Assembly: GCA_029882975.1 (NCBI GenBank) | Contig: JAOUJW010000015.1 | Span: 6,450 to 70,449, forward strand | Source: Gammaproteobacteria bacterium | Lineage (GTDB): Bacteria; Pseudomonadota; Gammaproteobacteria; SZUA-152 | Reading direction: 5' to 3' | Length of the DNA stretch: 64,000 nucleotides | In this document: piece by piece, positions 8,784 through 46,001 of the stretch | How positions within the stretch are numbered: the stretch's first letter is position 1 | Layout: every line of letters starts with the position of its first letter | Translations under genes and position numbers: made by a program | The notes under the pieces: model-generated | The model's database searches: none | What the model was told of the DNA's origin: nothing | What the model saw: only the letters and a program-made list of their open reading frames with translations

Positions 8784-9623
8784 TTAAATCATCAGGGCGT
8801 CGTGCACTTCTTGGATATTCTCTCCCTCAGACATATCAACCACACTAACGCTGGTATCCAAACCCAGCTTTGCAAAGGCCGGGACCGTCTCCCAGTCGAC
8901 CTTAGCCAATTCATGGTCTTTGTCCACATAGCTCTGTAGATTCGCAACAATTACCAAATCCAGAAAATCCGCAGCCCCATCATGCCGGCGTAGTACATTT
9001 TCATGGTGAGCTGCCACATCGACAAACATCTCCGGAAACTCCCATTTTTTCAGCATTGCCTCACCAATAGCGGTGTGGGTATTGCGAATAACCCTGTCCA
9101 GCAAGGCGTTATCATTGAGCAACTCGGGTACATCCTCGGCTCGTTTGATAATGGGCAACATACCAATATCATGCATCAACCCGGCAAGTAAGGCTTGATC
9201 CGGTTTCAGCTTGGCAAAGCCTGACAATGCATGGGAGATGGCCGCCACTTGAGCGCTATGATCCCAAAATTCGCGAAACTTGGTATCGGAAACCTCCGTG
9301 GTTGGCTGAAACATTTGCTGAACTATCAAGCTGTTAGCCAAATTAGTCACCATGGAATTGCCCATGCGGGTCACCGCCGATTCCACCGTTTCTATACGTG
9401 TGCTGCCGCGTATCAATGGGCTGTTGGCCACCTGAATCAACCGGGCAGTCAAACCGGCATCCGTTTGAATGACCTCGGCAATACGCTGGGTGCTCACATC
9501 CGGATCTTCCAGTACCTCTCTGATTTTCAAGGCCACTTCCGGAAGACTGGGCAGCACCATTTGATCTGAGTGCAACTCGTCCAACAATTCCTTTGTAATT
9601 TGCTCTTCCATGTTTGAGCTCAT
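8784..9623 (-). CDS. HDOD domain-containing signalling protein
   Basis: 279 aa. LPSLPEVALKI..L..P.....LA..I..D..L..R.L..ANS is a typical HDOD N-terminal region, followed by an HD-like LAGLMHDIG motif. Confidence 0.8.
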   Translation of the reverse strand: MSSNMEEQITKELLDELHSDQMVLPSLPEVALKIREVLEDPDVSTQRIAEVIQTDAGLTARLIQVANSPLIRGSTRIETVESAVTRMGNSMVTNLANSLIVQQMFQPTTEVSDTKFREFWDHSAQVAAISHALSGFAKLKPDQALLAGLMHDIGMLPIIKRAEDVPELLNDNALLDRVIRNTHTAIGEAMLKKWEFPEMFVDVAAHHENVLRRHDGAADFLDLVIVANLQSYVDKDHELAKVDWETVPAFAKLGLDTSVSVVDMSEGENIQEVHDALMI

Positions 9624-9754: not shown

Positions 9755-9955
9755 TCAATCCCGCTCTTCAATCCAATTCATTTGGATCGCCTCCAGGATT
9801 TTCTCGCCACAGTGTTCTGCGTCATCATTGAAATCGTCCAGTGCCAAAACCCAGGCCATAAGGTCGGTAAACCGAATATTGCGCGGGTCCACATCAGGAT
9901 GCGCTTCATCCAGGGCTATTGCGATTTCCAGGGAATCGGTCCATTTCAGTTCCAT
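9755..9955 (-). CDS. iscX: Fe-S cluster assembly protein IscX (YfhJ)
   Basis: 66 aa, acidic (MELKWTDSLEIAIALDEAHPDVDP...). Located immediately after fdx. Confidence 0.85.
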   Translation of the reverse strand: MELKWTDSLEIAIALDEAHPDVDPRNIRFTDLMAWVLALDDFNDDAEHCGEKILEAIQMNWIEERD

Positions 9956-9971: not shown

Positions 9972-10310
9972 CTAGTGGTTTTCAGAAACCATATTTATAG
10001 TGTATTTGGGAATCTCCACAATTAAATCCTGATCCCCAACCTTCGCTTGGCAACTCAAGCGCGACTCCGGCTCCAGTCCCCAAGCCTTATCCAAAAGATC
10101 TTCTTCTTCTTCCTCGGCCTCATCGAGACTACTAAAGCCTTCACGAATAATAACGTGACAGGTAGTACAAGCGCAGGATTTTTCACAGGCATGCTCAATC
10201 TCAATACCGTTTTTCTGTGCCGCATCGCAAATAGTGGTCCCGGGTTCGGCCTCTATAACAGCGCCGTCCGGACAAATTTCTTCATGGGGTAAAAATATTA
10301 TTTGGGTCAT
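9972..10310 (-). CDS. fdx: [2Fe-2S] ferredoxin of the isc operon
   Basis: 112 aa. Cys ligands C..C..C...C (CEKSCACTTCH). Confidence 0.9.
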   Translation of the reverse strand: MTQIIFLPHEEICPDGAVIEAEPGTTICDAAQKNGIEIEHACEKSCACTTCHVIIREGFSSLDEAEEEEEDLLDKAWGLEPESRLSCQAKVGDQDLIVEIPKYTINMVSENH

Positions 10311-10312
10311 GC

Positions 10313-12199
10313 CTATTCAAAATCTCCAACTTTATGCCCGGCCATGGCTTTCTTGATGCCGGCATCCATACGCCTGGCGGCAAATTCCACCGAATCGTTG
10401 TTTAATTGATCCACGGCCTGTTTGATCTCTCTATGATTTTCGCTACGGTTTAACAGCTGTTGTAAATTATCCATACCGTGTTGCAACTGTTCGATCTCCT
10501 GCGGCGACAACAGTTGCTCACCGTCTTCCTTTAAAGCTTGCACCAAAGCCTCCAACACTCGCTGTGCTTCAACCCTCTGTTCATTAAGATTGCGAGCGGC
10601 CACGTCTTCGCTGGCATGAGCCATGGCCTCACGCAGCATGGTTTCTATTTCCGTATCCGTTAAGCCGTATGAAGGTTTGACTTGTACGTTGGATTCAATC
10701 CCCTGGGTTTGTTCTCGGGCGCTGACAGATAACAAACCGTCCGCATCCACCTGGAATGTCACACGAATTCGGGCCGCACCGGCAACCATGGGAGGAATGC
10801 CTCTGAGCTCAAATTTTGCCAGAGAGCGACAATCACTCACCAACTCGCGCTCACCCTGTACCACATGAATGGACATGGCCGTCTGACCGTCTTTAAAAGT
10901 AGTAAAGTCCTGCGCCTTGGAAACAGGAATAGTGGTGTTTCTTTGAATCACTTTCTCCGTTAAACCACCCATGGTCTCTATACCCAAAGACAGAGGGATC
11001 ACATCCAGCAATAATAATTGATCATCCGGTTTGTTACCGGCCAAAATATCCGCCTGAATCGCTGCACCCAAGGCGACCACTTTGTCAGGATCAAGATCCA
11101 CCAGCGGTTCACACTCGAAAAACTCACCCACTTGGCTGCGAACATAGGGAACTCGCGTGGAGCCTCCCACCATCACCACATCCTGCACCTCGTGCACCTC
11201 AATACCCGCATCACGCAAAGCCCGGCGACAAGACAAGAGGGTACGCTTAACAACAGGGTCAATAAGGCGGTTAAACTCCTCCCGAGTTAGTCGCTCACTC
11301 CACTGGATACCGCCCGGTAGATTCAACTGGATGGGCACTTGCTCCGCCTGACTCAGCTGTTCCTTGACTCGGCAGGCTTCGTGGCGCAGGGCACGCTTAA
11401 AAGTGGCTGATTCTTGAGTACTTACATCGATCTGGACAGCGGCCCTGGACACCATCCAGTCCATAATCAGTTTGTCCATATCGTCACCGCCCAGCGCCGT
11501 ATCGCCGGCCGTGGACATAACCTCAAATACACCCCGATGCAGACGCAGGATAGATACATCAAAAGTTCCCCCGCCCAAATCGTAGATCACATGTACGCCT
11601 TCGGCCTGCTGATCCAACCCATAAGCCACTGCCGCTGCCGTGGGCTCATTTAATAGACGGAAAACATGCAAACCGGCCAGTGTAGCCGCATCTTTAGTTG
11701 CCTGGCGCTGAGCATCATCAAAATAAGCCGGCACAGTAATGACACAGCCGGTCAACTCACCGCCCAGAGCCTGCTCTGCACGCCCTCGCAAATGGGCAAG
11801 GATGTCAGCGGAAACCTCTACCGCGCTTTTGTCTCCGGCAGCGGTACGAATTTTGGGTACGGCGGATTCGGTTTTCACGTACTCGGCAATCTTCGCGGCA
11901 TCTGCCATGACATCATCATAACCACGCCCCATAATCCGCTTGACGGACAATATGGTGTTCTGTGGATCCTCAATCATAGCCGCGCGTGCCTCACTACCCA
12001 CATCACAACTGCCGTTATCTTTATAACGTACCACTGAAGGCAGCAGGTGCATTCCCTGGGCATCGGCGATGGTTTCCGCCAAACCGCTGCGTACAGTTGC
12101 CACCAGGGAATTAGTGGTTCCTAAATCGATACCCACCGCCAGCCGATGTTGATGTGGGGCAGTAGACTGCCCGGGTTCACTGATTTGTATTAAAGCCAT
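10313..12199 (-). CDS. hscA: Fe-S protein assembly chaperone HscA (Hsp70 family)
   Basis: 628 aa. Hsp70 signatures GIDLGTTNS and DLGGGTFD. Confidence 0.95.
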
Positions 12200-12266: not shown

Positions 12267-12815
12267 TTACAGCAATTGCTCTTCCAACTCCCGACTTTCC
12301 TGTTGTAATTTACTGATGAATTGCAGGCGTTTCACCAAATCCTTAGAGTGTTGTAACTGTTCCTGCAAGCTGCCCAAACTTTTCATCAATGGCCGCAATT
12401 GTTCTAAAACCTGCGTCAGCAATTGATCCAGTCCCTTGTTAAAATCCAACAATTCGCCCACAGGGTCTGCCGCACTGCTGATAGCGGCCAGAGATTCCCG
12501 CAATTCCATTTGCTGCATTAAAAAACCCTGATCCATTGATGTCGCCGTATCGTGCAACACATCACACCCTGCCAAACCTAACATATAGATTGCCCGGCTC
12601 AAGGGACCTCGCAACGTTTGATAGGCCTCATTAATCAGCGCGGATTGTTGCACGGACAAACGCCTTTCAGCATCGCCTTTATTGGCAAAGTTGTCAGGGT
12701 GTACGATGGATTGCAACCGGCGAAATCTTTCGCTTAAATCCTGGAGATTGACATCATAGGAAACCGGCAATTCAAACAGCTCAAAATAATTACTGGTGAG
12801 ATTCACCGTGGTCAT
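12267..12815 (-). CDS. hscB: Co-chaperone HscB (J-domain)
   Basis: 182 aa. J-domain with HPD (LQSIVHPDNF). Confidence 0.9.
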   Translation of the reverse strand: MTTVNLTSNYFELFELPVSYDVNLQDLSERFRRLQSIVHPDNFANKGDAERRLSVQQSALINEAYQTLRGPLSRAIYMLGLAGCDVLHDTATSMDQGFLMQQMELRESLAAISSAADPVGELLDFNKGLDQLLTQVLEQLRPLMKSLGSLQEQLQHSKDLVKRLQFISKLQQESRELEEQLL

Positions 12816-12845: not shown

Positions 12846-13169
12846 TTAAACAGTAAAACTTTCACCGCAACCGCAACGATCCTTCTCGTTTGGATTGTTA
12901 AACTGGAAACCTTCATTCAATCCTTCTTTACCATAATCCAACTCGGTACCATCCAGGTAAATCAAGCTTTTGGGGTCTACGATCAGAGTAACACCGTGAT
13001 GTTCAAACACAGTATCCTCTGCCTGAACCTCATCGGCAAATTCCATAATGTAGGCCATACCCGAGCAACCGGTGGTTTTTACACCCAAACGCAAGCCTAC
13101 GCCCTTGCCCCGGTTTTCCAGAAAAGATTTCACGCGATTTGCCGCGGACTCTGTTAATGTGATGCTCAT
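12846..13169 (-). CDS. iscA: Iron-sulfur cluster insertion protein IscA (A-type carrier)
   Basis: 107 aa. ...GCSGMAY...CGCGESF C-terminal motif. Confidence 0.9.
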
Positions 13170-13241
13170 AACTTAATATTCCAATTAATCCAACCAAACA
13201 ACCTAACTCAGCACTATCACCCGTTCCATGTGAGCGCGGGA

Positions 13242-14459
13242 TTAGTGCGCTGCCCATTTCACCGTGGATAAATCAACACCATCCTTATACATATCCCATA
13301 ATGGGGACAGTTCCCGCAATTTTCCAATCGCGTGGTTGATTTGCTCAATGGCAAAATCGATATCCGCCTCATTGGTAAACCGGCCAATACTGAAACGTAT
13401 GGAACTGTGGGCCAATTCGTCACTGCGACCTAAAGCCCGTAACACATAGGAGGGCTCCAGACTGGAGGAAGTGCAAGCTGAACCGGAAGACACCGCCAGA
13501 CCTTTTAAGGCCATGATCAATGACTCACCTTCCACGAAATTAAAACTGACATTAAGAATATTGGGCACACCATGATCCAAATCACCATTGATGTACACTT
13601 CTTCCAAACCCTTGAGACCTTCGTATAAACGGTTTCGCAATGCGGCTATTTTGTTACGATCGTCCGCCATGCGTTCTTTGGCAATCCTAAAAGCCTCGCC
13701 CATCCCCACGATTTGGTGAGTGGCCAGAGTACCGGAGCGCATACCGCGTTCATGACCGCCACCGTGCATTTGGGCTTCCAGTCGGACCCGAGGCTTACGT
13801 CGAACGTAAAGGGCACCGATACCCTTGGGACCGTAAACTTTGTGTCCGGAGAAGGACATCAAGTCCACTTTTAATTGCTCCAGATCAATATCCACCTTGC
13901 CCGCGCTTTGAGCTGCGTCTACATGAAAAATAATGCCTTTGGACCGGGTCATGTCGCCGATGGCGGCAATGTCCTGAATAATGCCAATTTCATTGTTTAC
14001 ATGCATGATGGAAACCAAAATGGTATCCGCTCGCATGGCAGCTTCCAGTTTTTGCAAATCAATTAAACCGTTGGGCTCCGGGTCCATATACGTGACTTCA
14101 AAACCTTCCCGTTCCAACTGGCGACAGGTATCCAAAACTGCTTTGTGCTCTGTTTTGGAAGTGATGATGTGCTTGCCTTTTTTGCTGTAAAAATGCGCCA
14201 CGCCTTTAATGGCCAGATTGTCGGACTCTGTGGCTCCTGAAGTCCAGACGATTTCCTTAGGGTTTGCGTTGACCAATGCGGCAACCTGGTTTCTGGCTTC
14301 TTCTACGGCAGTTTCTGCGTTCCAACCGAAAGCATGGGAACGCGATGCCGGATTACCGAATTCACCCTCCAGCGTTAAATACTGGGTCATTTTTTCTGCA
14401 ACGGCCGGGTCCATTGGAGTGGTGGCCGCATAATCCATATAAATGGGTTTATTCATCAA
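13242..14459 (-). CDS. iscS: Cysteine desulfurase IscS
   Basis: 405 aa. PLP-lysine [12 protein letters not shown]. Active-site SSGSACTS. C-terminal ...VKWAAH. Confidence 0.95.
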
Positions 14460-14696
14460 ATACTCCGTGAATCTCTGGTATTAACCGCATGCGTGGGAAC
14501 AGGTGTCTGGAAACTTCAACCTCGAACAGCGGGTTTACGAGCCCAAGTGTATAACAATCAATCGTTTCAATAAACGCTATAGTGCACGCGTGAAATGCAC
14601 CCGATCCACCGCCGACTTCAGACGACTGCGATCTCCCCCAAAATTTTATATCTAAAAACCAGGACTTATACCCGGTTTTGTGCCGGAAACTCGCCT

Positions 14697-14714
14697 CCCC
14701 CGTGAGCTCACGGG
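14697..14714 (-). promoter_or_regulatory. Perfect 18-bp palindrome (CCCCGTGAGCTCACGGGG) in the iscR-iscS spacer; possible hairpin, attenuator or operator
   Basis: Seen directly in the sequence. On the minus strand it is followed by a second short hairpin (CCGGcacaaaaCCGG) and a T-run. Confidence 0.4.
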
Positions 14715-14738
14715 GAAACACGAGAACCGACCAAACGC

Positions 14739-15248
14739 TTACATTGCCAGTATATTATCGTTGCGTTCAGTAGAGGCGTCATCTGCCGCAGCAGCGTTTT
14801 TGTTGCTGTTATGCAGTTGATCCTGACGTGCGGCCACATCTTTCACATGACGTTGTTCAACTAACTTGCCCAACGTGATGCCGTGCAGAAAGTCGTACAA
14901 CAAATCACTCAAGTCAGTCCACAGCTGATGCGTCAAGCAACGTTCGCCATTTTGGCACCCCTGCTCACCGGAACAACGAGTAGCATCTACTTTTTCATCC
15001 ACGGCGGCAATGATGTCCGCAACATTGATGTCATTGGAATCGCGACTCAGACGATAACCGCCACCCGGGCCTCGTGCACTGGAAACCAATTCCCGCTTCC
15101 GCAATTTTGCGAATAACTGCTCCAGATATGACAAAGAAATACCTTGTCGCTGGGAAATGTCGGCTAAAGTAATCGGCCCTTCAGTAGCGTGAACAGCCAA
15201 ATCCAACATAGCAGTAACCGCGTAGCGGCCTTTAGTTGTCAATCTCAT
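14739..15248 (-). CDS. iscR: Fe-S cluster-sensing transcriptional regulator IscR (Rrf2 family)
   Basis: 169 aa. [18 protein letters not shown]... Rrf2 HTH. Three Cys (C..C.....C) near residue 100. Confidence 0.9.
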
Positions 15249-15350: not shown

Positions 15351-15391
15351 CTGTAGTAATATTAATAATACCAGACCTATTTTGTCAAGTA

Positions 15392-16216
15392 TTATATCCC
15401 CCCCTTCTCCGAAGGGTTAGTCAGTTTATCGTCCGCAGCGCTTTTTGGATGAGCGTCTTGCATCCCGATTTCACAAGATTCCAGCTCTGGTAATTCAACA
15501 TCCTTAAATTCCGCATCCATGGCTTTCAGAGCAGCACACATGGCTTCGATTTTCTTATCTACAGCGTGGGTATGGTCTAATATACAATTAATGGCGTGAG
15601 CCACTGGATCCGGCGCATCCCGGGTAACGCCATAGGCATCAAATCCCATTTTTTTGGCCATATCATGCCGATGATCGTTTTCTGGAGAGGAAGTGTGGGT
15701 ACCTACCGCTCGTCCGGGCACACCCACAACCGTACAATTTTCAGCCACATCTTTGACCACCACGGCATTGGAACCAACACGCACTCCACTGGCCAAAGTG
15801 ATGGGCCCCAACACCTTGGCACCGGCACCCACCACCACGTCATTTTTAAGCGTCGGATGACGTTTGCCTTTTTCCCAACTGGTGCCGCCCAAGGTCACCC
15901 CATGGTATAGAGTGCAATCATCACCAATTTCCGCCGTTTCTCCAATCACCACCCCCATACCGTGATCGATGAAAAAGCGCCTTCCGATTTTGGCACCGGG
16001 ATGAATCTCAATTCCCGTAATCCAGCGGGCAAACCCGGCAATGGCTCGCGCTAACCAGAAAAAATCCCGTACCCACAAAGCGTGGCTGAGTCGGTGAATG
16101 ATCACCGCATGCACTCCGGGGTAAGTGGTAATAACTTCGAAGAAAGTGCGAGCGGCAGGGTCTCGGTCAAATACACAAGCCACATCTTCTTTTATTCGCT
16201 TGAAAAACTGTCTCAT
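15392..16216 (-). CDS. cysE: Serine O-acetyltransferase
   Basis: 274 aa. N-terminal SATase helical domain plus hexapeptide repeats ([38 protein letters not shown]). Confidence 0.9.
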
Positions 16217-45503: not shown

Positions 45504-46001
45504 CTATATTTTTTCCGCTGCCGGTTCAGCATAACCCCATTTTTTAAAGCGCCGATCCCATTGTTTAAAGCGTTTACGGCAATAGGTATCCAGGGCTTCA
45601 AAACCATCAAAAAACAGCTCATAATCGTCTTCGGCCGGTCCGTCAAACTCACAACACTCATTAGAGTGGTCACGACAAATTTGCGGCCGCTGGTGATAAA
45701 TAGCACAACGGCCATCAGGTAGAATATGATTGCAACGACTGATCACAGATAAAAACCAACCGTCATCATCCTTAAACAACTTCACATCGCGGTGAGACAC
45801 CTGCCAGATTAAATAATCAAATTCTTCCAAAGACCGTGGCGTATCGATTTGGTGGGTAATGTAGGTACAACACTTTGCTGTGCAGAGGCCGCATTTATCC
45901 TCCAGTTTCACTTCAATACCACCAATGGTTTGCGTTGGTTCCATTGGGTTTTTCGCCGCTTGTGTGTTTTTTCTTGCCACCTGACATTCTACTCCCATCA
46001 T
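45504..46001 (-). CDS. YkgJ-family putative zinc/iron-chelating CxxCxxCC protein (UPF0153)
   Basis: 165 aa. Cys-rich (CGLCTAKCC ... C.....C). N-terminal extent uncertain. Confidence 0.65.
   Translation of the reverse strand: MMGVECQVARKNTQAAKNPMEPTQTIGGIEVKLEDKCGLCTAKCCTYITHQIDTPRSLEEFDYLIWQVSHRDVKLFKDDDGWFLSVISRCNHILPDGRCAIYHQRPQICRDHSNECCEFDGPAEDDYELFFDGFEALDTYCRKRFKQWDRRFKKWGYAEPAAEKI

Follow-up and report, generated by a model that had tools for sequence, protein, structure and literature searches.

A clade-wide isc operon without iscU in uncultured sediment gammaproteobacteria

The ISC pathway centres on IscU, whose gene in textbook operons is co-transcribed with iscS and the chaperone genes. 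In the stretch of DNA analysed here, 64,000 nucleotides of contig JAOUJW010000015.1 that we call the window, iscS is followed directly by iscA across 72 bp. The operon belongs to an uncultured member of the SG8_11/SG8_15 group of sediment gammaproteobacteria, represented by a metagenome-assembled genome (MAG). The locus raises the question of whether the gene is truly missing, how it was lost, and where an IscU-type scaffold might be encoded. A preliminary description made from the sequence alone had read it as a canonical isc operon minus iscU and offered relocation of the gene, a deletion or an assembly artefact as explanations; the description itself stands, but the artefact has to be struck from its explanations.

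The ORF listing and the raw sequence place the whole locus on the minus strand in the order cysE-iscR-(282 bp)-iscS-(72 bp, 13170–13241)-iscA-hscB-hscA-fdx-iscX. All seven ISC proteins score above their NCBIfam equivalog cut-offs, and Pfam agrees. They are encoded by iscR (14739–15248; 169 aa, an Rrf2-family Fe–S regulator; TIGR02010, 215.3 against a cut-off of 207.55), iscS (13242–14456; 404 aa, an IscS-type cysteine desulfurase; TIGR02006, 745 against 643), iscA (12846–13169; 107 aa, an A-type carrier; TIGR02011, 181.4 against 150.6), hscB (12267–12815; 182 aa, a J-type co-chaperone; TIGR00714, 92.7 against 46.75), hscA (10313–12199; 628 aa, an Hsp70-type chaperone; TIGR01991, 871.7 against 708.55), fdx (9972–10310; 112 aa, the ISC [2Fe-2S] ferredoxin; TIGR02007, 192 against 132) and iscX (9755–9955; 66 aa; TIGR03412, 114 against 40.4). 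The gene order of the preliminary description is therefore correct, with exact coordinates and family identities now attached, as is its full-length IscA of 107 aa. Its IscS is likewise full-length, but the 405 aa given there were counted from a TTG one codon upstream; the ATG at 14456, most likely the true start, gives the 404-aa form recorded in public collections. The cluster-ligand cysteines of IscR are kept in the window protein, as judged from the alignment.

The flanks of the operon are also familiar. A cysE-like serine acetyltransferase gene (15392–16216, minus strand; Pfam Hexapep) lies upstream in the order suhB-trmJ-cysE-iscR and occupies an equal position in loci L001, L086–L093, L177, L184 and L185. 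Between cysE and iscR, a consensus scan picked up a sigma-70-like promoter match (15359–15388, minus strand; TTGACA-18-TAATAT, 10/12), a candidate by pattern match alone. Downstream of iscX there is an HDOD gene, followed by ndk-rlmN-pilW-rodZ-ispG-hisS. This HDOD/HD-domain gene (8784–9623, minus strand) occurs in the window lineage only, and in the iscU-bearing sister loci L177, L184 and L185 its place after iscX is taken by a 2OG-Fe(II) oxygenase gene. The rest of the window is ordinary chromosome, including leuBCD, asd, fimV, ppk/ppx, pst-phoU, putA and mltF, and 30 ORFs annotated by Pfam between 26.9 and 58.2 kb comprise housekeeping genes only. On the minus strand at 45504–46001, ~30 kb from the isc operon, lies a gene for a protein of 165 aa whose CxxCxxCC domain (PF03692) putatively chelates zinc or iron. 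An Rfam scan of the window found no known RNAs.

Compared with the canonical iscRSUA-hscBA-fdx-iscX operon of E. coli, Azotobacter and most Gammaproteobacteria, the window is alike in gene content, order and strand, iscU excepted, and it shares the flanking suhB-trmJ upstream and ndk-rlmN-rodZ-ispG-hisS downstream; its IscS is 76% identical to the enterobacterial protein. It differs in having 72 bp in place of iscU, a 282-bp iscR-iscS gap with stable hairpins, and cysE inserted upstream of iscR. Judged by its sequence, the locus belongs to the ISC system by every feature tested save the defining one, the scaffold gene within the cluster.

The iscR-iscS intergenic region (14457–14738, minus strand) is unusually long. 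Folding predicted two stable hairpins directly after the iscR stop codon (~14655–14731; ΔG −41.9 kcal/mol, z −4.4), the second of which is followed by a U-run, and the pair resembles a terminator or attenuator placed between iscR and iscS. A gap of 240–366 bp is kept throughout the clade, iscU-bearing sisters included, while its sequence is not conserved. A 90-aa ORF that fills the gap was considered as a novel substitute gene and rejected, being conserved in no relative.

The preliminary description had also reported no IscU-like ORF in the spacer or the rest of the window, and three kinds of search agree. When the 64-kb window was searched by tblastn with IscU, SufU and Nfu-type queries, only noise was returned (all E ≥ 1); the single match of SufA and of the A-type N-terminal part of NfuA was iscA itself. 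An IscU HMM built from 74 IscU sequences, run with filters off against all six-frame stop-to-stop segments of the window, gave a best E of 3.3 and nothing IscU-like, and the LPP[VI]K motif was not found in any frame. These searches rule out that the spacer or any other part of the window conceals an iscU, even a degenerate one. In the 72-bp spacer itself there is neither an ORF nor an IscU remnant, nor any significant structure, and the spacers of the window clade show no similarity to those on either side of iscU (iscS-iscU and iscU-iscA) in its sisters. As for a SUF or NIF substitute near the locus, SufU and an Nfu domain were not found in the window by tblastn with IscU, SufU, SufA and NfuA as queries, and the NifU N-terminal domain, which is also detectable with the IscU profile, was not found in its six frames. 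The usual spacing is far larger than 72 bp: in the 115 iscU-carrying loci among those listed, a median of 465 bp (range 403–962) separates the iscS end from the iscA start.

As MAGs may hold mis-assemblies and the missing gene measures only ~390 bp, the junction could in principle be an assembly, binning or recent-deletion artefact of one MAG. IscS and IscA proteins 100% identical to those of the window are, however, joined by the same 72-bp junction on a 525-kb megahit contig from ENA and on a Logan contig of another run, i.e. in independent assemblies from different pipelines. Identical IscS and IscA proteins occur in seven index blocks, five contigs of which were read, and they are also annotated in two NCBI MAGs (both 'Gammaproteobacteria bacterium'); the NCBI accessions for hscA, hscB, iscA, iscS and iscR run consecutively from MDH5326227 to MDH5326231. 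Furthermore, the same gene order is found in a related group of different species from more than 10 metagenome samples, with spacers that have diverged in sequence and in length (33, 72 and 85 bp). These observations leave the artefact with practically no chance, and we regard it as effectively refuted.

That related group is SG8_11, which we reached via a shared 90% IscR cluster and which consists of GCA_001303045.1 and many JGI and ENA contigs (represented by L086–L093). Its IscS, HscA and HscB are 83%, 70% and 51% identical to those of the window, and its operons read iscR-iscS-iscA-hscB-hscA-fdx-iscX, again without iscU, with iscS-iscA spacers of 33 or 85 bp. The iscU-less isc operon is a real clade-wide gene-order variant. 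In contrast, four loci of sister lineages, L097 (SG8_15), L177 (GCA_036507695.1), L184 and L185, keep an iscU of 125–129 aa between iscS and iscA, exactly at the site of the spacer; the IscU of L097 is identical to that of SG8_15. These sister operons share ~20 kb of synteny and the long iscR-iscS gap with the window, and their IscS, IscA and Fdx are 84%, 80% and 85% identical to the window proteins. The window gene order from the pilT-like (T2SSE) gene via suhB-trmJ-cysE-iscR to rodZ is common to L177, L184 and L185, beginning at mltF in L177 and extending down to hisS in L177 and L184. The IscU matches nearest the sister lineage (P0160, P0190 and P0166) also lie in canonical operons, all three of them. 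Because sisters with identical synteny carry iscU at this very site, the gene is most simply taken as ancestral there.

A distance-based neighbor-joining tree of the seven concatenated proteins (1613 columns, 500 bootstraps) grouped the window with L088 and L093 at 84% (82% in an earlier version) and L177 with L097 at 100%, and joined the two groups at 100%; in a smaller tree of three proteins the branching order within the window clade was unresolved. At 84% bootstrap in a distance tree, the loss of iscU is most simply read as a single ancient event in the ancestor that the window lineage shares with SG8_11. The comparison with the closest relatives proposed in the preliminary description has thus separated an iscU-less SG8_11 group from syntenic sisters that carry the gene, and of the deletion suggested there, an ancient and fixed evolutionary event is upheld, but a deletion in any other sense is not.

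The loss is not confined to this clade. Outside it, iscU is missing between iscS and iscA in 5 of 120 listed loci: L006, L012 (Thiohalobacter sp.), L024 and L079 among the 75 listed loci of GTDB species representatives that have both iscS and iscA, and L101 among the 45 listed metagenome loci. In all five, iscA directly follows iscS at a distance of about 10–89 bp, the spacers are not conserved, and hscB, hscA and the IscU-contact residues are intact, as in the window. The three-protein tree paired L101 with L079 and L006 with L012 (100% each), joined the two pairs at 67% far from the window clade, and left L024 alone. Since these five loci fall elsewhere in the ISC-protein tree, their losses are independent of that in the window clade; on the tree there are at least three independent iscU-loss events overall, and at least two other gammaproteobacterial lineages are concerned, one of them including a Thiohalobacter MAG. 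A literature search for an iscRS-A-hscBA-fdx-iscX operon without iscU found no description.

Other departures from the canonical order were seen among the listed loci. Unlike the window, L012 and L024 have an extra gene between iscR and iscS for a NifS-like cysteine desulfurase of 380–382 aa that lacks the C-terminal tail of IscS (6812–7960 in L012, 4012–5154 in L024), and an iscR-iscS gap of a size matching this gene is present in L005, L014, L023, L083, L102, L103 and L112. In L029 (342–1967) and L062 (7965–9614), iscR-iscS-iscU are followed by unrelated genes, and iscA-hscBA are absent. In L108 (1786–2639), iscA-hscB are preceded by a sigma-54-type response regulator gene instead of iscS-iscU.

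The rest of the machinery has the appearance of one made to work with IscU. Binding of IscU by HscB depends chiefly on L92, L96 and F153 and to a smaller extent on R99 and E100 (E. coli numbering; PMC3040723). All seven iscU-less loci, the window included, have L at position 92, M at 96, F at 153, R at 99 and E at 100, and most iscU-bearing operons likewise have M at 96. IscS contacts IscU through helix 309–316 (α8), E347 and the C-terminal helix 379–391, and deletion of residues 376–404 abolishes IscU binding (PMC2854127). The invariant positions within these three elements are all kept in the seven iscU-less loci, and the C-terminal tail is intact in the window. More broadly, 90–100% of the family-conserved positions are kept in each ISC protein of the iscU-less sequences (97% for window HscA), figures that fall inside the span observed for operons with iscU; none of the few deviations touches an IscU interface. 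The dN/dS values are 0.047 for hscB and 0.057 for hscA in the iscU-less SG8_11 group, compared to 0.035 and 0.054 in an iscU-bearing sister pair, all of them rough because dS, at ~1–3, is near saturation. By these rough estimates, hscB and hscA appear to be under strong purifying selection. Together, the intact contact residues and this selection make supply in trans the likeliest source of an IscU-type scaffold.

Stand-alone iscU genes do exist. Two-gene rrf2-iscU units encode the IscU proteins P0198 (L181 and L182), P0196 (L183) and P0335 (L188), the pair spanning 5513–6402 in L181, 5500–6399 in L183 and 9506–10396 in L188. The surrounding locus is conserved, with mazG, rsd and a tRNA_edit/HDOD gene before the pair and ribD_C, nudix and pilZ after it, onward to typA, and no iscS, iscA or hscBA was seen near the units in any of these loci. 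The stand-alone IscU scores 230 with TIGR01999 against a cut-off of 192 and keeps C37, D39, C63, H105, C106 and the LPPVK motif. It ends in a C-terminal [D/E]EVA tail, which none of 17 operon-encoded IscUs inspected carries. The subfamily with this tail comprises more than 120 database clusters, some labelled Thiogranum sp.; all three of its members whose context was examined are stand-alone, and all three other IscU matches checked are in operons. In the accompanying Rrf2 protein the three cluster cysteines of IscR are missing, and its score with the IscR model is only 142.8 (cut-off 207.55). The module thus encodes a bona fide IscU apart from iscS, iscA and hscBA, and iscU can sit apart from the isc operon in gammaproteobacteria, as seen in three lineages other than that of the window genome.

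The GC content of the rrf2-iscU loci, at 59–63% compared to 48% for the window, indicates that they do not come from the window lineage. Of the flanking genes, only IscR/Rrf2 and PutA match the window, and no similarity was detected between the tRNA_edit and HDOD gene before rrf2-iscU and the HDOD gene of the window. By GC and tetranucleotide composition the rrf2-iscU loci resemble one another most; L101 ranks with the closest of the isc loci, but unrelated loci of matched GC are about equally close. Their composition is therefore compatible with, but no proof of, an origin in the GC-rich iscU-less lineage of L101. The module is known from these other, GC-rich lineages, with no iscU-less operon linked to it in the same genome.

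To locate the organism's own iscU, databases were queried with an IscU from Thiohalomonadales, with that of the sister SG8_15 and with a stand-alone-type profile. Among the best 120 matches of each search there was none named SG8_11 and none with an accession from the series of this MAG (MDH532.../MDH580...), and none of 20 NCBI-sourced IscU matches checked by accession came from this MAG. Given the 84% and 85% identity of IscS and Fdx to the sister lineage, the sought IscU should be ~84–90% identical to the query. The lists of 120 end at about that identity (~84–90%), so their negative outcome counts, though with little weight. In genome and metagenome contig scans, the window's own species was not among the matches listed. 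One IscU-search protein, P0339, has a source pattern like that of the window proteins (NCBI, JGI, Logan and ENA, not nr) and an equal contig count. Five IscU proteins (P0147, P0148, P0151, P0158 and P0175) are 91–98% identical to SG8_15 IscU and are labelled in NCBI as 'Kaarinaea lacus', a Nostocales cyanobacterium; they likely derive from gammaproteobacterial companion contigs in non-axenic cyanobacterial assemblies. Two further IscU-like proteins, P0140 (187 aa) and P0260 (183 aa), outscore genuine IscU in the searches. They contain an internal tandem duplication of ~residues 57–113 on contigs of 734 and 2371 bp and are probably assembly artefacts.

Of the three explanations in the preliminary description, relocation is the most likely for this genome: a canonical iscU elsewhere on the chromosome, whose existence and position we infer, would quite probably supply the scaffold in trans. 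The spacer is best explained as the place where iscU was long ago cleanly cut out of an isc operon that is canonical and functional in all else, an event that most simply took place once, in the ancestor of the window and SG8_11 lineages, and has been stably inherited since. The rest of the machinery would work as in E. coli: IscS would mobilise sulfur, Fdx would supply electrons, HscB and HscA would release the cluster from a U-type scaffold, IscA would carry it, and IscX and IscR would modulate the process. The gene acting in trans could be the relocated native iscU or a second copy that made the operon copy dispensable. By analogy, the rrf2-iscU modules, iscRSU standing alone in L029 and L062, and iscA-hscB standing alone in L108 offer precedents for such dispersal.

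Two other explanations must be weighed against relocation. One is replacement of the housekeeping IscU by a NifU-type or otherwise divergent U-type scaffold, e.g. in a nif cluster. It would account for the lack of an IscU of this MAG with high identity to the sister IscU among the best matches, and the repeated independent loss of the operon gene in related lineages suggests that a redundant copy existed beforehand. No nif-related or NifU-like sequence was found in the window, however, and NifU N-terminal domains are not known to carry the LPPVK motif needed by HscA, while the HscBA interface is conserved here; we consider such a replacement distinctly improbable. Alternatively, IscU might be absent from the genome, with IscS kept for other sulfur transfer and IscA, HscBA, Fdx and IscX serving another scaffold or client; SufBCD, an Nfu-type protein or IscA itself could then be the scaffold. 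No IscU is encoded in the 64-kb window and none among the best matches is attributable to this MAG or to SG8_11, as this explanation would have it, but we know of no hscBA-containing genome described without IscU. E. coli genetics show that IscA is able to work with the SUF system, yet A-type proteins are regarded as carriers and judged unlikely scaffolds (PMC2682760). The only HscA substrate described in the sources consulted is IscU, which HscA recognises via LPPVK (PMC6506825), a motif present in no window protein. Moreover, the HscB and IscS contact residues are unchanged, and selection on hscBA equals that in the iscU-bearing sisters after long divergence. It is thus unlikely that the genome is without IscU, and quite unlikely that a whole free-living clade has no IscU at all and that HscBA and IscS build or hand over clusters on an unrecognised scaffold.

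With relocation as the favored explanation, the iscU-less operon is best filed as a gene-order variant of the ISC system, fixed in its clade and recurrent elsewhere, and as a known ISC system otherwise. As the clade has run the operon without iscU over a divergence that leaves HscB only 51% identical, and other lineages have lost the gene as well, stoichiometric co-expression of IscS and IscU from one transcript is dispensable. Scaffold supply would thus be separable from the rest of the machinery genetically and presumably also in regulation, and the rrf2-iscU modules suggest one route, in which the scaffold gene is placed under its own regulator without Fe–S cluster ligands. For annotation pipelines, calls of the ISC system as present or absent that are based on the gene cluster would misjudge such lineages. 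If the genome should truly have no IscU, it would be a naturally occurring system in which to test whether HscBA has a role independent of IscU.
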